IMG/VR virus record: IMGVR_UViG_3300024270_000002
Reading direction: 5' to 3' (one strand)
DNA: 64,000 nucleotides
From: a virus
Taxonomy: Duplodnaviria; Caudoviricetes
The notes beneath the pieces are model-generated. The model saw only the letters and a list, made by a program, of their open reading frames with translations, was not told the DNA's origin and searched no databases. Made by a program: the position numbers and the translations under genes. Below are positions 1,553 through 14,101 of the stretch, in pieces (within the stretch, counting starts at the first letter, position 1; each line of letters begins with the position of its first letter).

Positions 1553-2464
1553 ATGTCAAACAGTACTTTTAATTTCGCACAGTATCAGCAGATCGCAGCT
1601 CAGGAGCAGACCCAGTCCGGTGATGGTACCAAAGTCGGGTACTTTAAACTCAAAGAGGATGGCGACATTGCCATCGCTCGTATCAATCTTAGTTCTACTG
1701 ATGAGTTTATGTTCGCAGCAGTTCATACTCTTCAGGTAGGCGGTAAATGGATGAAGGTAAGCTGCCACAATCCTCTCGGCATGAATGCAGCTGGCTGCCC
1801 TCTTTGCTCTGCAAATCAGGCAAACCCTAAGGGCTCTATCGGTAAGTCCGCTAAGAAGATGTTTATTCCTATGCTTGTTTCTTACCGCGATCCTCAATCC
1901 GCAACTGGTTACACACCTGTTACTCCTGTTATTTGGGACCGTCCTGCTCAGTTCTCTCGTGAGCTTGCTAATAAGCTTATGGTAGCAGGTAATCTTAAGG
2001 ATGTTCTCGTTCTCATTACCCGTAACGGTAAGGCAGGCGACATGCAGACTACTTACTCGGTAGATGTTCTTCCTGCAACTCATCCGGTATTTAAGCCTGA
2101 GATGATTCCTGCTGACTTCAGTGCTTTCAATAACTTTAATATCGCTAAGCATTCTTACTGGGAGAAGACTGTTGAGGAAATTAACACCTTCCTTGCTACA
2201 GGTCAGTTCCCTGAGGTTCCTAAGGCAAACAACCAGCAAGCTGTAAATACTGTAGCAAATACTGCTACTGCTTATGCGGCTCCGGCTGCTCCTGCTTACA
2301 CAGCACCTGCTCAGGCTGCACCCACTCAGACAGTTCCGGCATATGCTGCTCCCGCAGCACCTCAGTATACTGCACCCGCAGCGCCCATGAATACTCCTGC
2401 AACAGCAGCACCTGATAACGCAGCAACAACTCCTGTAAGAAACTTCTCTGGCTTCAGCTTCTAA
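1553..2464 (+). CDS. Single-stranded DNA-binding protein, T4 gp32-like, with Ala/Pro-rich tail
   Basis: GYFKLK, H...C...CPLC Zn ligands, ITRNGKAGDMQTTY; position between primase and polymerase; low-complexity APAAPAY tail. Confidence 0.75.
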   Translation: MSNSTFNFAQYQQIAAQEQTQSGDGTKVGYFKLKEDGDIAIARINLSSTDEFMFAAVHTLQVGGKWMKVSCHNPLGMNAAGCPLCSANQANPKGSIGKSAKKMFIPMLVSYRDPQSATGYTPVTPVIWDRPAQFSRELANKLMVAGNLKDVLVLITRNGKAGDMQTTYSVDVLPATHPVFKPEMIPADFSAFNNFNIAKHSYWEKTVEEINTFLATGQFPEVPKANNQQAVNTVANTATAYAAPAAPAYTAPAQAAPTQTVPAYAAPAAPQYTAPAAPMNTPATAAPDNAATTPVRNFSGFSF

Positions 2465-2480
2465 TAATTAAAACAAATTT

Positions 2481-2510
2481 AAAGACGGGTCTGAAAACGA
2501 TCCGTCTTTT
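2481..2510 (+). terminator. Intrinsic terminator after ssb
   Basis: AAAGACGGGTC-loop-GATCCGTCTTTT. Confidence 0.8.
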
Positions 2511-2553
2511 ATTGTATTATATTATATGAAATATATTTTAAGTGAGGTTATAC

Positions 2554-4407
2554 ATGAATAGTTTATTTGGAGGCTTTGATTTATCAGTAAGTACAAAGCC
2601 AAAAGTATCACCTGAAGCTCTTATTAAAAAAGCAACACCGACTGTTGTAGCAGAGCCTAAGAAGATAACTAATCAGAGTTTATTTGCCTCTGAAGAATTA
2701 TCTGAATTTAATGTAGAACTTAATAAGCCTAAGCCTGAAGCCCTGGCACGTAAGATTGCAAGTACTGAAGAAGGCGAAGTTGACACGGCTAAGGTACTTA
2801 AGTCTAAGAAGGTTTCTCTTGCTGAAAAACTCGCCTTAATTAAAATTAAGGTACTTGAAGTACTCGGTAAGCAGAGAAAGAATGTAATTGTAATTAAGAC
2901 AAAAGAAGATTTTGAAGATTATGTTTCTAAAGCTATCCAGTTCGGCCGAATTGCGATAGACACTGAGACCAATAACTCTACTGACCCCATGACTTGTCAG
3001 TTAATGGGTCTTTGTTTGTATTATGAAGGCGGTAAGCAGGCTTATATTCCTATTAATCACGTTAACCCTGAAACTGGCGAGCGCCTTGATTGGCAGCTTA
3101 CTGAAGCCGATTGTAGAGAGCAGCTTCAAAGAATTAAGGATGTCGGCACTTTTGTAGTAATGCACAATGGTAAGTTCGATTATGAAGTTATTAAGTGCAC
3201 CTGTGGCATTGAGATTGAGCCTGACTGGGATACTATGATCGGTGCTCACACGCTTAACGAGAACGAGCTTATGGGTCTTAAGCCCCAGTATATCAGTAAG
3301 ATTGACCCTACTCAAGAAAAATATGATATTGAGAGCTTATTTGTAGTGCCTTATAAGTACGTAGACCCCGATATTTTTGCTCTCTATGCTGCGACTGACT
3401 CGTATATGACTGACCGACTTTACCTGTATCAAGTAGCTATTTTTGAACAGCCTGGTAATGAAAGACTTTATTGGATGTTTAAAACTATTGAAATGCCTGT
3501 TGTAAAAGTAACTGCTGATATTGAGCTTATCGGTGTATGTATTGACCAGGACTTTGGCGAAAAGCTGAAGGTAAAGTATAATCAGATTCTCGAAGGAATC
3601 GATGAAAAAATTGAGGCCGAGCTGAAAAATCTTGAGCCACTGATTAACAAGTGGAAAAGCAGTAAGGACGCTACTGACAAAACAAAGCAGTTCGAGCCCA
3701 AGAAGACAAAGCTCTCGCTTGCTAAACTTGAGGAGAAGTATCCTTTTGTAGATGAGAAAACGGGTAAGAGATATAAAGTTGGTAAGGCTAAGATTGAGCA
3801 GCTTGGTGATCCTATTAACCTTGCTTCACCTACACAGCTTGCTATTGTATTTTATGATATTTTAAAGTGTCCTGTGGTAAGCAAAAAATCGCCCAGAGGC
3901 ACCGGAAAAGACGAGCTTGAGGCAATAGCTGAGAGAACCGATATTGCGCTCTGTAAGCTGATTTTGGAGCGTCGTGGCATAGTTAAATTGATTACTACCT
4001 ATATTGATGTTATTCCTGCTCTTGCACAGCATTGGCCCGACGGAAGAGTTAGATATCGCCTTAATTCAGCTGGTACTGATACAGGCAGATATTCATCTGG
4101 TGGTGAATTTAAGTTCTTGGACGAGAATGAAAATCCTGTAGAAATGGCCTCTATAAATTCGCAGAATATACCTTCACGTGGCGATGGTAAAATTACTCGT
4201 ATGCTTTTTAAGGCCAGAGAAGATTTTAATACTATTACTACTGATGATAATTGTTACAGACTACCTGAAATTTCTGAGATTGAAACTGTCGATGGTTGGA
4301 AGTTTGGTAAAGACCTTATAGTTGGTGATAAGCTAATTTCAGATGAAGGTACTGATATTATTATAAATATTGTATATATAAATAAAGAATACTTAATTTA
4401 TGTTTAA
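2554..4407 (+). CDS. polA: Family A DNA polymerase, N-terminal fragment (3'-5' exonuclease + thumb) ending in a degenerate intein-like tail
   Basis: Exo motifs DTET, HNGKFD, YAATD; NLASPTQL, TGRYSS, NSQNIP, RMLFKA; last ~62 aa resemble an intein N-part (EIETVDGWKFGKDLIVGDKL). Start moved to ATG 2554 after GAGG. Confidence 0.9.
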   Translation: MNSLFGGFDLSVSTKPKVSPEALIKKATPTVVAEPKKITNQSLFASEELSEFNVELNKPKPEALARKIASTEEGEVDTAKVLKSKKVSLAEKLALIKIKVLEVLGKQRKNVIVIKTKEDFEDYVSKAIQFGRIAIDTETNNSTDPMTCQLMGLCLYYEGGKQAYIPINHVNPETGERLDWQLTEADCREQLQRIKDVGTFVVMHNGKFDYEVIKCTCGIEIEPDWDTMIGAHTLNENELMGLKPQYISKIDPTQEKYDIESLFVVPYKYVDPDIFALYAATDSYMTDRLYLYQVAIFEQPGNERLYWMFKTIEMPVVKVTADIELIGVCIDQDFGEKLKVKYNQILEGIDEKIEAELKNLEPLINKWKSSKDATDKTKQFEPKKTKLSLAKLEEKYPFVDEKTGKRYKVGKAKIEQLGDPINLASPTQLAIVFYDILKCPVVSKKSPRGTGKDELEAIAERTDIALCKLILERRGIVKLITTYIDVIPALAQHWPDGRVRYRLNSAGTDTGRYSSGGEFKFLDENENPVEMASINSQNIPSRGDGKITRMLFKAREDFNTITTDDNCYRLPEISEIETVDGWKFGKDLIVGDKLISDEGTDIIINIVYINKEYLIYV

Positions 4408-4440
4408 GCTTTTTAAAGCATGAAAGGAGAGTGATGCTAA

Positions 4441-5604
4441 ATGAGTAAGTCCGTAAGAACGAGAACCCGGTATAAACTGGTTGGTTCGGACTATTCTTAG
4501 TCTGCGCAGGAACCCCGATTGACTGCACACATGGCAAACGATGAAAATATGATTCAAGCATACAGAGAAGGTAAGGACCTCTACTGTGTTATTGCATCAA
4601 AAGTTTTTAATAATAAATACGAAGATAATCTTGAGTTCTACCCTGAGGGAACAGAAATCGAGCTTGATGGTAAGAAGATTATTTGTGGACATAAGACACA
4701 TTTAAATAAAGCAGGTAAAGAGCGTAGATCCCTGTCCAAAATGATACTTTTGGCGATTACGTATGGAATGTCAAGTAACACTCTTGCAGGCAGAATTAAT
4801 AAGACAAAAGAAGAAGCTCAGGAAATCATGGATAGCTTCTTTGATAGCTTCCCCAAAGTAAAGGCGCTGATTGAAGATTCTAAGCAGACTCTACGAGAAA
4901 ATGGTTATGTAGAAGACTGGGCGGGCAGAAGACGTCATTTGACTGACTACTTCCTTAACCCCTATGAAGCAGCCTATGCAAATCCAGAAAAGCTTATTGA
5001 GCAAACTTTTAATCCTATTCTTGGATGTGAGAGTCGTCCGCTTGTAGATGATAAGCTCACCTCTTGGGTTAACAGGGCTAAGATGGCACGTGGTAATAAA
5101 GAATTTGACCAGCTGGCTAAAGAAGCAGCAAAAGAAGGTATTATTTTATCTGCTAACACTGGGCGTATTGCTCAGGCAGAACGTCAGTGTTTAAATGCAC
5201 GTATTCAAGGCGGTGCAGGCTCATTAACGAAATTGGCGATGATTAATATTCACAATAGCCAGGAGCTAAAGGACCGAGATGCTCATCTTGTTATGACTAT
5301 TCACGATGAGGTTATGCTGGAATGCCCTGCCCTTTATGCAGAAGAAGTTTCAGAGATTCTTCCGAGAATTATGATCGAGACAGCAGTACCTTATATTTCA
5401 GTTGGAATGAAATGCGACCCTGCTGTAGAGTCTAGATGGTATTGCGGAGAATATGCTGTCGCCGTGCAGTCCGAATTTAAGAAGTACGAAGAAAAAGGCT
5501 GTACTCGTGAAGAAGCCTTCCAGAAGCTCTACGCAAATCATCCAGAGCTTCCTGAAGAAGCTATTTATAAAACAATTACTGAAGGTATTGACTTGGAGTT
5601 TTAA
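4441..5604 (+). CDS. polA: Family A DNA polymerase, C-terminal fragment; in-frame TAG at 4498-4500 inside motif A
   Basis: GAAAGGAG RBS then MSKSVRTRTRYKLVGSDYS*SAQEPRLTAH; motif B RSLSKMILLAITYG; motif C IHDE. ORF track start 4519 omits the catalytic Asp. Confidence 0.85.
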
Positions 5605-5609
5605 AATTT

Positions 5610-5639
5610 AAGGTGAGTTAGTAAAATAACTCACCTTTT
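5610..5639 (+). terminator. Intrinsic terminator after polA
   Basis: AAGGTGAGTTA-GTAAAA-TAACTCACCTTTT. Confidence 0.85.
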
Positions 5640-5685
5640 ATTGTATTATATAGTATGTAAAAATAAAATAAGGAGAAACTATAAA

Positions 5686-6825
5686 ATGATTTTAAAGACA
5701 AAGAATTTCCAGGAAGCAGCTAATAAGATTCTTTTGGCCGTTGGAGTAGATAAGGCAGCAGCAAATCTTGAGCTTGCCGCAAAGGATACCGCTCTTTACC
5801 TTAGAGTCACCAACAGAGAGTGGTATACGGCAATCAAGTTTGACCTTGAGAATCCCACTGAATTCCGGGCAGTAGTAGACGCTAATCTTTTCCTTAACCT
5901 TATTTCAGGCATCAGTACTGAAGAGTTTGAGCTTGAGATCAAGGACACCGTTGTAGTGGTAAAGGCAGGCAAGAGCTCTTATAAGCTCGCTATGATTTAT
6001 GAAAATGACCAGCTCATGAAGCTTCCTATTATTAAGCTTGACCCTGATCAGGTGACTGTAAGTATGACTATCTCTAATGATGTTCTTATGAGTATTCTTA
6101 ACGTAAACAGCCGCGAGGTTCAGAAGGCTAAGAAGGTTGAAGTAAACGAGCTTCAGCGTTATTATTACATTGACGAGACTGGTTGCTTTACTTTCACTAC
6201 CGGTGCTTGTATCAATGCTTTCACTCTTGAGAAGCCTATCAAGCTTCTTCTTACTGATAAGGTAGTAAAGCTCTTTAAGCTCTTTGGCTCTGACGCTTTC
6301 CTGTCTTATGGACATATCGTAAATGCTGATAACTCTCTTCAGCCTATTGTAGTTTTCCAGACTGAGGACGTTTATGTAGCAACTAGACTTCTTAGTGATG
6401 AGACTTGCATTCAGAAGGTTAAGGCGCCCTGTGATGCAATGAAGGCTCTTGCTAAGGAAGTATATGAGCATAACCTCGTACTTTCTGCTACTGATCTTTC
6501 TGCAGCAATCAGCAGACTTCTTATGTTCCACAAGAATAGTAGTGCAAAGGCAGACCTTTCATTTGTCCCTGCTTCTGTAGAGTTTTCTAATACTGAGCTT
6601 ACTATCTCTGACCTTTCTGGTGATAATAAGGAAGTTATTACTATCGAAAACGGTAGCTCAACTCCTGGCGGTTATTCTATGGGCGTAAACCTTATCGACC
6701 TTAAGGCCGTTCTTGATTCTTGCAAGAATGAGCATATTACTATGAACTGCGGTAACCACAAGTCTATTATTATCTGCCGAGCAAATATCAGTAATGTTAT
6801 TGCTGAGACGAGGACTAAGGAATAA
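5686..6825 (+). CDS. dnaN: DNA sliding clamp, Pol III beta-like
   Basis: About 380 aa with three-domain clamp pattern (LYLRVTNRE, DLSAAISRL, MGVNLIDLKAVL); clamp loader genes nearby; ATG 5686 after AGGAG. Confidence 0.75.
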   Translation: MILKTKNFQEAANKILLAVGVDKAAANLELAAKDTALYLRVTNREWYTAIKFDLENPTEFRAVVDANLFLNLISGISTEEFELEIKDTVVVVKAGKSSYKLAMIYENDQLMKLPIIKLDPDQVTVSMTISNDVLMSILNVNSREVQKAKKVEVNELQRYYYIDETGCFTFTTGACINAFTLEKPIKLLLTDKVVKLFKLFGSDAFLSYGHIVNADNSLQPIVVFQTEDVYVATRLLSDETCIQKVKAPCDAMKALAKEVYEHNLVLSATDLSAAISRLLMFHKNSSAKADLSFVPASVEFSNTELTISDLSGDNKEVITIENGSSTPGGYSMGVNLIDLKAVLDSCKNEHITMNCGNHKSIIICRANISNVIAETRTKE

Positions 6826-7319
6826 TGGCAAATACGACTATTGGGAAAAAATGGGAAAATAAATTCGCTTCAACTTTTGAAAAGCAGTTTCCTGATAAGC
6901 TTATCTACCGCCTGCCAGACCAGCAAAGTGGCTATGCAGGCGAAGGTGGCTCCAACCCCTGCGATTTCTTGTGTTATCCTGGCGATTGTGTTTTAATGGT
7001 TGAGTGTAAAGCAATAAAAGGTGCATCGATTAATTTTAGTGAAATTAGACAGTATAAACCAATGCTTGGTTATAAAGGCCGTTATAAAACGCATATTGGT
7101 GTATTAGTCTGGTTTTATGAGAAGGACCAGATCATTTGGGTCAGCATTGAAGAAATGGAAAAAATGGCTGCTGATGGTGAGAAGTCAATTGGGCTTAGAA
7201 TGATTAATGAGAAAAAACCTTACAAAAAATCGTATAATATAATTAAGGTTGACGCTCAAAAGTTACGTACTTTTATGGAAGCAGACCTTATTAAATTAGT
7301 GGAGGTTTTGAATGGCTAA
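6825..7319 (+). CDS. RecU-like Holliday junction resolvase (PD-(D/E)xK)
   Basis: GKKWE, RLPD, PCDF, VECK, Q motif. Confidence 0.7.
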   Translation: MANTTIGKKWENKFASTFEKQFPDKLIYRLPDQQSGYAGEGGSNPCDFLCYPGDCVLMVECKAIKGASINFSEIRQYKPMLGYKGRYKTHIGVLVWFYEKDQIIWVSIEEMEKMAADGEKSIGLRMINEKKPYKKSYNIIKVDAQKLRTFMEADLIKLVEVLNG

Positions 7320-9060: not shown

Positions 9061-9086
9061 AATTTTTAAATTTACTCAAAATTATT

Positions 9087-9095
9087 TGCTAAATT
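9087..9095 (+). promoter_or_regulatory. Late-class promoter motif TGCTAAATT (first of 11 copies)
   Basis: Recurs intergenically at 9087, 23258, 26122, 32252, 34607, 40516 (CGCTAAATT), 40987, 45952, 51500, 53922, 62244, mostly before virion genes. Confidence 0.8.
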
Positions 9096-9127
9096 TAATA
9101 GAAAACAAATTAAAGGAGACAGTTATT

Positions 9128-10162
9128 TTGGGTAGCTTAGTTGAAGTGCATCGCCCGCGTATGAAAAAAGCCGAGTATGAAGCACTTAAAAAGAATTTAG
9201 ACAGAGAGTATTTCTATGATTTCTATTTACATAACTGTAATGATTATGTATGCACAGAGTTTAATATTAACCTTAGTACTTTGTACAGGCTAATTAAAGA
9301 TTTTGGAATTGAGCTTACTAAAGATCAGTTAAAGTATAGAAATAAAATTGCAAGTGAGCAAAAATGCATTGAAACATTTGGGGTCAAAAATCCTTTCGGG
9401 GCAGAAGAGGTTAAAGCTAAAATACGAGATACTAACTTAAGTAGATACGGTGCTGAAAATCCTTTTGCTTCAGAAGAGATAAAAGATAAAATAAAGCAGA
9501 CACATTTAGATAAATACGGAGTAGAGTATATTTCGCAAAGTGCGGAGATTAAACAAAAAGTTGAAGAGACCTGTCTAAAACGATATGGCGCTGTTAAGTA
9601 TTCAAAAACAAACGAATGCAAAGAAAAAACTAAACAAGCGATTTTAGATAAATATGGTGTATACAGCACAACACTCTTGCCGGAAGTACAAACAAAGAGG
9701 GTTCAGACGAATATAGAACGGTATGGTGTTGATTGCTTTTTTAAAACTCTTGATTTTCATAAAAAAGCATATAAACATTATATCTACAATGACCAGTCAT
9801 TTGATAGCTTGCCTGAGTTGGCTGTATGGATATATTGTATTGACAACGGTATTGAAGTAAAAAGAAACCCGTGTTATTTTGATTATAACTTTGAAGGAAA
9901 AAATCACAGGTATTTTCCTGACTTTGAGATTAACGGTCAACTAGTAGAGATAAAGGGTGATCACTTCTTCAAAGAAAACGGTACAATGCAAAATCCTTTT
10001 GACAATAGCCAGGATGCACTATATGAGGCAAAGCATCAATGTGGTTTACAAAATAACGTGCAGTTTTGGCGCTCTGCTGAATATGAAAAATATTTGCAAT
10101 ACTTTATTGAAAATTATGACGTAGCTGATTATGTATTTAAAAAGAACAATGAGGTAATCTAA
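9128..10162 (+). CDS. Free-standing homing-endonuclease-like protein: (K/R)YGV-type repeats + C-terminal PD-(D/E)xK domain
   Basis: Six ~23-aa repeats (TFGV, RYGA, KYGV, RYGA, KYGV, RYGV); YFPDF...VEIKG; likely TTG start 9128 after AAGGAG. Confidence 0.7.
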   Translation: MGSLVEVHRPRMKKAEYEALKKNLDREYFYDFYLHNCNDYVCTEFNINLSTLYRLIKDFGIELTKDQLKYRNKIASEQKCIETFGVKNPFGAEEVKAKIRDTNLSRYGAENPFASEEIKDKIKQTHLDKYGVEYISQSAEIKQKVEETCLKRYGAVKYSKTNECKEKTKQAILDKYGVYSTTLLPEVQTKRVQTNIERYGVDCFFKTLDFHKKAYKHYIYNDQSFDSLPELAVWIYCIDNGIEVKRNPCYFDYNFEGKNHRYFPDFEINGQLVEIKGDHFFKENGTMQNPFDNSQDALYEAKHQCGLQNNVQFWRSAEYEKYLQYFIENYDVADYVFKKNNEVI

Positions 10163-11351: not shown

Positions 11352-12386
11352 ATGAAAAGTTTGGCTGTAAAATATCGTCCTACTACTTTTGAAACTGTTG
11401 CTGGACAAAATGTAACTACAAGAATTCTTAATAAAGTATTGGAAAAGCAGGCTTTCAAGAATGCTTATCTTTTTGCGGGCCCTTCTGGATGTGGCAAAAC
11501 AACTTGTGCCCGTATTTTTGCTAATGCTATTAATGGAGGAATTGGTGAGCCTACGGAAATTGACGGAGCATCGAATAACGGAGTTGACCAGGTTAGAGCT
11601 ATCGTAGAGTCAGCTAATCAGAGAAGCCTTGTTGGCAATTATAAGATTTATATTATTGACGAGTGCCATATGATTACTTCCGCTGGTTGGAATGCTTTCT
11701 TGAAAGGACTTGAGGATTGTCCTGAATATACTATCTTTATCTTCTGTACTACAGAGCCTAATAAGATTCCTGTAACTATTCAGAACAGAATGCAGCGTTT
11801 TAATATTGCTAAGATTAGTGCTCAAGAAATCAAAGATAGACTCTTTTATGTTTGCCAGCAGGAAGGTTTTACTAACTATAAAGATACTTGTGAGCTTATT
11901 AGTAAGCTCTGTGATGGCTGTATGAGAGAAGCCCTTACAATGCTTGACCAGTGTGCTGACTTGTCTAATGATCTCAGCCTTGAAAATACCAAAGCAGTTC
12001 TCGGTGAGGCACCTTTTGAAAGAATGCTTAAGCTTACCAATTGTCTGATTGGTCATAATGAGCAGTTCACTCTTGTAGCTATTGAAACTCTCGCTCAGGA
12101 AGGTAAGGACCTTAAGCAGTTTGTAAACGAGTATCTTAGCTTTACTCTTGAGCTTACTAAGTATATCTTGTTCCAAAACATCGCCACAACAAATATTCCT
12201 GCTTATCTTGAGAACTCTGTTGACCCTATGATTAGTGTAAGGGCGACCACTTCTTTTGAGAATGCTTTAGGCTGGTTTAATAACCTTACTACTAAGCTTC
12301 TTGAGGTTAAGAATGCTATCAAATATGATACTTCAGTAAAGGCAGTTGTAGAAGCATATTTTCTTAACATTTGCCGCGGAATTTAA
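11352..12386 (+). CDS. dnaX: Clamp loader ATPase, DnaX (gamma-length)
   Basis: LAVKYRP, GPSGCGKTT, EIDGASNNGVD, IIDECHM, NAFLK, GCMREA. Confidence 0.92.
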   Translation: MKSLAVKYRPTTFETVAGQNVTTRILNKVLEKQAFKNAYLFAGPSGCGKTTCARIFANAINGGIGEPTEIDGASNNGVDQVRAIVESANQRSLVGNYKIYIIDECHMITSAGWNAFLKGLEDCPEYTIFIFCTTEPNKIPVTIQNRMQRFNIAKISAQEIKDRLFYVCQQEGFTNYKDTCELISKLCDGCMREALTMLDQCADLSNDLSLENTKAVLGEAPFERMLKLTNCLIGHNEQFTLVAIETLAQEGKDLKQFVNEYLSFTLELTKYILFQNIATTNIPAYLENSVDPMISVRATTSFENALGWFNNLTTKLLEVKNAIKYDTSVKAVVEAYFLNICRGI

Positions 12387-12401
12387 GTTTAGGAGGTCTG
12401 T

Positions 12402-13187
12402 ATGAATATTATTGGACAAACTAAACTACTCTCTAAAATAAATGCAATGGAGTACCTGCCTAAAACTTTAATGTTTCTCGGCACTGTAGGCTGTGGTAAA
12501 CATACAATCGCCAAGTATACTGCCGAGAGGTTTGGGCTTGACTTTGTAGAAATCGAAGAGTCTGTATCTGCCCAGGACCTTGAGGATTACACACATAAAA
12601 CTCTTGATACTCTTTATCTAATTAACTTAAATAAATTTACTGAAAAGCAACAAAACCAGTTCCTTAAGTTTATTGAAGAGCCTTCAAAGTCTGTTTACAT
12701 TATCTTAATTGCGAACTCTGAGGCGGGCATTCTTAATACTATTCTCAATAGAAGTATTAAATATCATCTTGAGCCTTACACAAAAGAGCAGATTGAGCAG
12801 ATTACTAATACAACAGTTAATGAGCTTGCTTTTAATATTTTTCAGACGCCAGGAAAGTTACTTAATTTAACAGAGCCGAGTTTTAATGATGTTATGGGTT
12901 TAGCGAATACAGTTGTGCACAGCATTAATAGAGCAACGTATCCGAATGCTCTTGTAGTGTCTACAAAAATCAATTACAAGGATCTGTATAATAAAATTGA
13001 TTTTGATCTGTTTTTTGATGCAGTTGAGTACCTTGCATTAGAAGATTACGTAAATAATAAAACCGAGCAGAGCCTTACAGTATTTAAAACAACAAATCAG
13101 TTTAAGCAATATGCCACGCAGCAGAATTTGATTAAAGAAATTCTGATGATAAACTATCTTACTACACTTTGGGAGGCCGTACAATGA
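12402..13187 (+). CDS. holB: Clamp loader delta-prime-like subunit
   Basis: IIGQ, GTVGCGK, QNQFLKFIEEP, ILNTILNRS. Confidence 0.75.
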   Translation: MNIIGQTKLLSKINAMEYLPKTLMFLGTVGCGKHTIAKYTAERFGLDFVEIEESVSAQDLEDYTHKTLDTLYLINLNKFTEKQQNQFLKFIEEPSKSVYIILIANSEAGILNTILNRSIKYHLEPYTKEQIEQITNTTVNELAFNIFQTPGKLLNLTEPSFNDVMGLANTVVHSINRATYPNALVVSTKINYKDLYNKIDFDLFFDAVEYLALEDYVNNKTEQSLTVFKTTNQFKQYATQQNLIKEILMINYLTTLWEAVQ

Positions 13188-14101
13188 CTTTAATGGAGCT
13201 TAAAAAATTTATTACTGACAAAATTGTACCGTCAGACTTTATGATTTTTGTTAGTAAGGATTGCCCGTTCCTGGCTTCTCAGTATGTAAAGGCTCTCGGA
13301 GATTTATCTATCAGCGGCATAAATAAAATCTCTAGTATTTATGAGCCTTTGCAGTCTTCTATTATGCTTCTTACTAACACTGAAGGAGCTCTTAATGTTT
13401 TGTATACTGATACTTTTGATGAGCGATCAGAAGATTATAGTCAGTTTGAAAATACTATCGTAGTATGTGAGCAGGTATCAAAAGATATTGCTAAAAATGT
13501 GGAAAATTATATTATTAAGTTTCCTAAGCTCACTGACTGGCAGATTTGTGATTATGCTAAAACTCTTTGTCCGCATGTAGAGGAAAGTGAGCTTATGTGG
13601 CTGGTCCAGGCGTCTGACAATAGTATTGAGAGAGTTTTAAACGAACTTGACAAGGTAGCTTTGTTTGGTAAGAACGAGCAGAAGGAAGTGCTTGCTGCTA
13701 TCAGATTTGACCCGCAGACTGACCTGTATAAAGCTGACCTTTTTGATATTGTCAATGCCTTAGTTGAAGGCGATATGCTGACTCTTAATGATTTTATTAA
13801 ACATAACGGCTGGGAAATTCACGAGCCTGTTGTACTTGTAAATAGAGCGTTTAATAGCTTGAAAAATATTATTTTGATTTCTCAAAACGCAAACTTGACC
13901 GCCGAAGACTGTGTAGCATCTGCCGGGCAGTTTAAGTTTATCAAATATAAGTATAAAAGCCTTAATGTGGTCGCAGTAAAGCAGAAGCTTAAGTTTCTTA
14001 CTAATTTTGATTTAATGCTTAAAACGTCACAGCTTGAGCTTAGTAAACGTGACATGATGAGTTATATCATTAATAATATGTATTATAAAATAACTAACTA
14101 A
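13184..14101 (+). CDS. holA: Clamp loader delta-like subunit
   Basis: NELDKVAL, LFDIVNAL, D-x-x-LKT C-terminal motifs; follows holB with ATGA overlap. Confidence 0.65.
   Translation: MTLMELKKFITDKIVPSDFMIFVSKDCPFLASQYVKALGDLSISGINKISSIYEPLQSSIMLLTNTEGALNVLYTDTFDERSEDYSQFENTIVVCEQVSKDIAKNVENYIIKFPKLTDWQICDYAKTLCPHVEESELMWLVQASDNSIERVLNELDKVALFGKNEQKEVLAAIRFDPQTDLYKADLFDIVNALVEGDMLTLNDFIKHNGWEIHEPVVLVNRAFNSLKNIILISQNANLTAEDCVASAGQFKFIKYKYKSLNVVAVKQKLKFLTNFDLMLKTSQLELSKRDMMSYIINNMYYKITN

Follow-up and report, generated by a model that had tools for sequence, protein, structure and literature searches.

The codons TCT-TAG-TCT at positions 4495-4503 of the window (the whole stretch of 64,000 nucleotides analysed here) break motif A in the C-terminal half of a split family-A DNA polymerase, and comparison with related genes indicates that this site is probably a short ribosomal stop-hop of the programmed kind, left behind by a mobile homing-endonuclease cassette. 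Comparative evidence upholds the core of what an earlier note on this DNA had proposed, namely a stop-hop between matched codons that makes the catalytic motif, whereas the local hairpin as the main RNA element and the group I intron scar, both also put forward there, were not upheld. The window is part of a 128-kb record, 55% complete, of a large uncultured phage that occurs in faecal and ruminant gut metagenomes. No cultured close relative was found among GenBank phages, the best having about 41% identity; a host among the Bacillota is loosely indicated by matches to metagenome-assembled genomes, one of which is a Bacteroidales bin.

The polymerase is encoded by two ORFs, of which the first (2554-4407) carries the exonuclease and the first polymerase part and is followed by the C-terminal half (table 1). 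Family-A motifs A, B and C are all present, motif A being complete only once six nucleotides are skipped. Re-reading of the frame that opens behind a ribosome binding site at ATG 4441 confirmed that it meets TAG within motif A: it gives MSKSVRTRTRYKLVGSDYS, the stop and SAQEPR, and then stays open for 367 codons up to 5604. The stop (4498-4500) does stand between identical Ser codons (TCT 4495-4497 and TCT 4501-4503), as had been noticed, and the GGTTC at 4483 and the GAACC at 4463 and 4510 were found in their places. Removal of the six nucleotides yields GSDYSAQEPR, again in agreement with the note; this is the exact motif of insert-free relatives, and DYSAQEPR aligns without gaps with ADYSQIELR of solved PolI (6p5c). 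The predicted hop product of 385 aa has the length of insert-free relatives sharing its start (P0061). Substitution rates show strong purifying selection on the frame beyond the gap, with dN/dS of 0.009-0.07, comparable to insert-free pairs, and leader changes between insert-bearing relatives are mostly synonymous.

Table 1. Features of the split polA region (positions of the window)
Feature	Position	Strand	Basis or remark
N-terminal PolA half, 617 aa, with the 3'-5' exonuclease and the initial portion of the polymerase domain	2554..4407	+	Pfam DNA_pol_A_exo1 and DNA_pol_A over cut-off
C-terminal extension of N-half, resembling a Hint (intein) domain but truncated and lacking splicing residues	4216..4407	+	Model of fused relatives
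33-nt gap where relatives have a homing-endonuclease gene; gene absent in window	4408..4440	+	
Extended Shine-Dalgarno, strongest in window	4422..4435	+	Duplex with anti-SD -19.2 kcal/mol
Leader ORF, 19 codons, the last three encoding the catalytic Asp-Tyr-Ser of motif A, with TCT 4495-4497 as take-off codon	4441..4497	+	
Start-region helix, 5' arm (Lys-Ser codons)	4448..4453	+	Pairs with 4487-4492
Start-region helix, 3' arm, ending 2 nt before take-off; also 5' arm of local hairpin 4487-4504	4487..4492	+	
6-nt coding gap: TAG stop 4498-4500 and landing codon TCT 4501-4503	4498..4503	+	
Resumed frame: remainder of motif A, motifs B and C	4504..5604	+	Pfam DNA_pol_A, E 2.5e-47; dN/dS 0.009-0.06 against close relatives

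The six bases are real, because they are identical in one Logan contig (possibly the source sample itself) and in seven further JGI/ENA assemblies (L213-L219), all with TCT-TAG-TCT unchanged; these assemblies come from near-identical phage and attest the bases, not independent origins. In runs X11 and X18 the site itself is without coverage. The retention of TAGTCT in all of them answers the concern, voiced in the earlier note, that it might be an assembly error. Nor is the insertion private to this genome and accompanied by polA decay, as dozens of relatives carry inserts and purifying selection is strong. A broken gene or an assembly error, in a phage that relies on another polymerase, is scarcely credible: the genome is only 55% complete, which leaves some room for a second enzyme, but the available sequence holds a single PolA copy under strong downstream selection, the seven further assemblies are identical and an ordered pattern recurs across the polA insert family. 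On the sequence data, decay and assembly error are excluded by selection and repeat assemblies and can be regarded as largely refuted. The window differs from record G000 by four single bases, at 4929, 11724, 51914 and 54805; the difference at 11724 is a TAA inside the clamp-loader gene of G000 and is probably an error in that assembly.

Relatives gathered by protein homology provided about 100 distinct motif A regions, 34 of which have an insert in motif A (including the window and six from a pattern scan), and two more inserts lie in motif B. The DNA pattern scans required a matched codon, and their six true polA matches were excluded from the matching counts; the other matches were mostly chance. 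When the whole 128-kb record was scanned for further hop sites, with in-frame sites covered only, none was convincing. The inserts occupy four sites, after the Ser of DYS/DFS, the Glu of SAQE, and Leu or Thr in motif B, and they are 4-14 nt long, with nine different gap lengths and all frame relations. The matched codon-stop-codon arrangement for which the note had proposed comparing related polA genes is indeed conserved: at 28 of 29 homology-found loci the motif breaks off at a codon that is immediately followed by a stop, with TAG, TAA and TGA all represented, and at 25 of 28 the final codon of the insert is synonymous with the take-off codon, although the insert loci are mutually related and such counts overstate independence. 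TAG opens 26 of the 35 gaps and ends none of the 85 long genes of this genome that are led by a ribosome binding site. On a quick tree, from which rows with fewer than 230 aa downstream were excluded, 15 gains or losses are required to explain the insert label, and strong branches force at least nine of them.

Several loci illustrate the range of this variation. L168 (91% protein identity to the window) has a 6-nt gap and L173 (99%) a 7-nt gap, 7 nt being found in run X10 as well, while an 8-nt gap at the Glu site is present in L169 and likewise in run X11. The shortest gap, of 4 nt, is that of L172 (968-1000), where TGA and the Glu codon used for landing overlap. In L073 and L144 the landing codon has a first-position mismatch, and L122 lands on GAT after GAA, a third-position mismatch that leads to Asp. 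L039 (3495-3520) has a 5-nt frame-breaking motif A insert that lacks a stop and is accompanied by no more than a modest helix; this insert is possibly an assembly error.

Since 25 of 28 landing codons are synonymous with the take-off codon but only 13 are identical to it, the match appears to be at the level of decoding; the wobble-position differences likewise argue for decoding rather than nucleic-acid slippage. Slippage of RNA polymerase, or at the DNA level, between short direct repeats would drop the insert in some molecules, and TCT is directly repeated in the window. However, the repeats are 2-3 nt long and keep to the codon frame, about half of them have different wobble bases, and the source-like run holds no insert-free form (contigs drop rare variants), so that slippage is highly improbable. 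Many inserts look like inverted copies of upstream codons. Given this resemblance, part of the codon match could stem from the way in which the inserts originated; as a lead only, they may have been created by fold-back repair.

Stop-codon readthrough, or a suppressor tRNA, would produce a polymerase with two extra motif A residues. It would suit the in-frame insert of the window and the rarity of TAG in this genome, and DYSQRKS forms do exist in databases, but in these forms the gene caller has translated TAG as Gln, and the four extra motif A residues of P0014, P0027, P0029 and P0068 arise in the same way (checked for P0014 and P0029). A relative with 99% protein identity has a 7-nt gap, and therefore plain readthrough is not the general mechanism; inserts whose length is not a multiple of three make up 15 of 28. 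In addition, TAA and TGA are also used, motif A is gap-free relative to PolI, and no tRNA gene was found in the available sequence, which leaves readthrough highly unlikely. TAG reassignment was rejected as well.

Another way to use the same frames is termination at the stop followed by re-initiation at 4519 or 4531, with the 19-aa peptide that bears the catalytic Asp serving as a third subunit. The gene is already in pieces, and loci of the L022/L169 type have an ATG that overlaps the stop in the right frame. This is nevertheless very unlikely: AQEPR would be lost, though its codons vary only synonymously in close relatives; the Shine-Dalgarno values at 4519 and 4531 are -4.3 and -4.6; 5-25 conserved codons separate the landing site from the next start codon; and at the majority of insert junctions there is no start codon in frame.

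The main alternative to the hop, pending RNA reads, is that the insert is a micro-intron cut from the mRNA, either by a trans-acting group I core or by an endonuclease and ligase that recognise a hairpin. Its U...G ends fit the window, local hairpins recur among the relatives, with 29 of 35 loci below the null mean, and group I-like introns, as judged by eye, occur at motif B in the related phages L178 and L184. Across the family, excision at such ends gives back the motif for only 13 of 35 inserts, none of them at the Glu site or in motif B, which removes the basis for the group I intron scar that had been suggested. Hairpin geometry and length vary, and splicing would need neither an in-frame stop of any of three kinds nor wobble-position matching. 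The insert of the window is only 6 nt long; there was no Rfam match at 2400-7000, and no RF00028, other group I intron or RtcB in the available genome sequence, which at 55% completeness is weak evidence. Taken together, a micro-intron is unlikely.

A stop-hop is further consistent with the RNA signals around the start of the C-terminal half. The Shine-Dalgarno duplex of the window (-19.2 kcal/mol) compares with a best value of -13.6 and a median of -9.5 for its other genes, and the medians are -19.2 kcal/mol for insert loci and -8.1 for insert-free split loci. A helix between the start region and the bases just upstream of take-off is predicted in all 35 insert loci, where it ends 0-3 nt before take-off, and is absent from insert-free loci; its medians are -10.8 (Ser site) and -12.2 (Glu site) versus -4.7 and -3.0 without insert. 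The helix shifts with the take-off site, as Glu-site loci pair at the Glu register and not at the Ser register. Among loci fetched later, all three with inserts have both Shine-Dalgarno and helix, and all three insert-free split ones have neither.

RNAalifold recovered the start-region helix unaided. At the Ser site four of five helix pairs are invariant and one covaries: pair 12-48 takes the forms C-G, A-U, U-A, G-C and G-U, with 12 compensatory (two-sided) changes, a result reached in none of 500 shuffles, whereas the arms of Glu-site helices change jointly, Ser-Thr with AGT and Ser-Arg with TCT. Lys-Ser-Val/Ile is found near the start in 20 of 23 loci, and in the 20 Ser-site loci with the motif the leader Lys is always AAG and the Ser always TCN (20/20), as against 46% and 63% in ordinary genes. 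The fixed codons suggest that the conservation of Lys-Ser-Val/Ile is explained by RNA pairing; the motif might additionally act as a nascent-peptide stimulator.

The earlier note had drawn a hairpin at 4487-4504 around the stop. It can be drawn as described, but it does not exceed chance (z -0.6 to -1.0 against shuffles and -1.6 against synonymous redraws), and in full context its pair probability is 0.03, compared with 0.93 for the competing helix 4449-4452/4488-4491. The two structures exclude each other, because both use the same upstream bases, which the weaker local hairpin pairs with the landing region. Preference for the sense over the antisense strand across the family is 22 to 13, which is not decisive. 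The geometry of the local hairpin also differs from that of the T4 bypass, with the take-off codon in the loop and the landing codon in the stem, and it is weak here. What relatives conserve, with covariation, is mainly the start-region helix and not the local hairpin. The polA halves lie between terminator-like hairpins at 2481-2509 and 5610-5637; after each of these comes a similar TATTGTATTAT motif, which may be a phage promoter element.

In the stop-hop as we picture it, the ribosome would stall with UAG, a stop that is rarely used, in its A site and peptidyl-tRNA-Ser on TCT 4495; the anticodon would release, the mRNA would slide by 6 nt, and the tRNA would re-pair at TCT 4501, giving DYSAQEPR. 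A single rule, by which the tRNA lets go at a codon followed by a stop and pairs again with the next synonymous codon, would explain the four sites, the nine lengths and all frames. At take-off the 3' arm of the helix would lie inside the ribosome, and it would become free to pair with the start region only once the ribosome had moved forward. The helix may thereby pull or lock the ribosome forward, as has been proposed for the 5' stem-loop of T4 gene 60, which lies 9 nt before take-off (10.1101/2024.12.09.627546). The helix over the start region may also space ribosomes, and the very strong Shine-Dalgarno would offset both this cover and losses at the stop or a low hop yield, unstimulated stop-hops being low-level events (10.1101/2024.12.09.627546). 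A more far-reaching reading of the same signals is possible and is offered tentatively: the start-region helix would both gate initiation and drive the hop, with the landing region competing for it; the inserts would form a repeatedly evolved, minimal class of natural 4-14-nt bypasses in the polymerases of gut phages; and hop yield would be tied to ribosome loading and could set the polymerase level.

Inserts are confined to split genes, with none in 47 fused polA genes. An endonuclease-sized ORF (244-608 aa) lies between the halves at 9 of 31 insert-bearing loci and at none of 20 insert-free split loci. GIY-YIG is over the Pfam cut-off in L006, L022, L078, L186, L008 and L009, and L138 and L211 have a LAGLIDADG call; Pfam endonuclease matches are weak for L093, L122 and L144 and absent for L073. 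A contig of a close relative from run X10 has, upstream of 4420, the same 14 nt as the end of the GIY-YIG gene of L006. The window itself has a free-standing 358-aa ORF after recA (9086-10162) with DUF7487 repeats, a family also weakly matched by the cassette ORF of L122, and the ORFs next to it appear intact; this is a probable homing endonuclease. Split polA genes with no insert yet with a strong Shine-Dalgarno or an MSKSV-type start were seen in L028, L043, L107, P0060 and P0061, and sequence comparison suggests that these have likely lost the gap secondarily.

The tail of the N-terminal half, together with the first strand of the C-terminal half, resembles a half-size Hint domain in structural models. 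For modelled fused relatives the top 18 structural matches were all Hint, with a middling best Z of 7.5 (rmsd 2.2 over 63 residues). Neither the window nor the aligned relatives have the splicing residues of inteins (N-terminal Cys/Ser; C-terminal His-Asn followed by Cys/Ser/Thr), and the tail and that first strand likely join the two PolA halves.

In L008 (1399-3915) and L009 (1417-3912) PolA is in three pieces, with a second Hint-like tail and a GIY-YIG gene. The third piece has a new strong start, a stop-led gap of 12 or 9 nt in motif B and its own start-region helix; both motif B cases come with their own new split, their own nuclease and their own start. Group I-like introns, judged by eye, are seen at motif B in L178 (near 3810), L184 (near 3580), L079, L092 and L160. 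Motif B is one homing hotspot with two solutions, the introns (as judged by eye) or the gaps of L008 and L009.

An insert of this kind would disrupt the target of the endonuclease within the most conserved codons and leave the protein unchanged. Its evolutionary use is probably immunity to the cassette nuclease, by analogy with mobA, for which such immunity has been reported (10.1101/2022.08.31.505936), and this genome would since have lost its endonuclease. The surroundings of the site suggest that it is what remains of a homing-endonuclease cassette like T4 mobA, which the earlier note had not recognised; nothing supports the switch on replication that it had imagined.

What the family offers to further work is dozens of natural variants around a 60-nt signal, with gaps of 4-14 nt, three stops, four take-off amino acids and three frame relations; the model in which pairing of the exiting mRNA pushes the ribosome is therefore simple to test. 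Homing endonucleases would gain a third way, besides introns and inteins, of protecting a conserved target. Stop-led gaps can mimic reassignment of the genetic code, and many gut-phage polymerases annotated as truncated or TAG-recoded are probably intact. Elsewhere in the window, genes judged from their translations only as beta-clamp-like (5641-6825) and DnaX/HolB/HolA-like (11352-14101) accompany the family-A polymerase, which ends in IDLEF.

To our knowledge, the only two established cases of programmed bypassing are T4 gene 60, together with its homologues, and the byps of yeast mitochondria. A literature search, with most subscription journals outside its coverage, found no published description of this polA insert family. 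In-frame stop-hops were not known from nature at the time of a 2016 review (PMC5009743), and sequence comparison suggests that the polA site is most likely a very short natural bypass of a kind so far described only in engineered test genes. The synthetic stop-hops of E. coli (PMC5009743) have the same layout, but they are low-level reporter events without stimulators, whereas the polA site is natural, lies in an essential motif and has conserved signals. The byps of Magnusiomyces mitochondria are also many small inserts in essential genes that are skipped by matched-codon hopping; they differ in their length of 27-55 nt, in using an unused sense codon instead of a stop, and in being read by yeast mitochondrial ribosomes. 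Fractured genes (Dassa et al., PMC2677866) share with polA the break of a gene for phage replication at a Hint domain, an endonuclease gene lying between the halves. They were described without a coding gap (PMC2677866), and the Hint relic of polA is about half size and has no splicing residues.

The closest parallel is the gene 39/mobA/gene 60 cassette of T4 with its 50-nt programmed bypass (10.1101/2022.08.31.505936; 10.1101/2024.12.09.627546), for which terminal extensions, nuclease, bypass and stepwise nuclease loss have been described as parts of the mobA element (Manning and Atkins, 10.1101/2022.08.31.505936). In both cases an essential replication gene is split in two with added terminal extensions; a free-standing homing endonuclease lies between the halves and is often lost; and the gap comes early in the second ORF, with matched take-off and landing codons, a stop 3' of take-off and a stem 5' of it, which in polA is predicted. 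The target, however, is polA and not topoisomerase, the gap measures 4-14 nt instead of 50, and the leader has 17-24 codons (32-36 at motif B) instead of 46. The polA family also has several endonuclease families, four sites and common wobble-matched codons; its gap is too small for an A-site stem-loop or a mini-SD, and its 5' helix uses the start-codon region. Homology in sequence between the two would not be expected. MobA of T4-like phages is an HNH enzyme in the gene for the topoisomerase large subunit, with a cassette of about 50 nt, whereas the endonucleases of the polA relatives are GIY-YIG and LAGLIDADG. By this analogy the polA element would work like the T4 mobA cassette but is not a member of it, being in another gene, with other nucleases and with a gap about a tenth as long.
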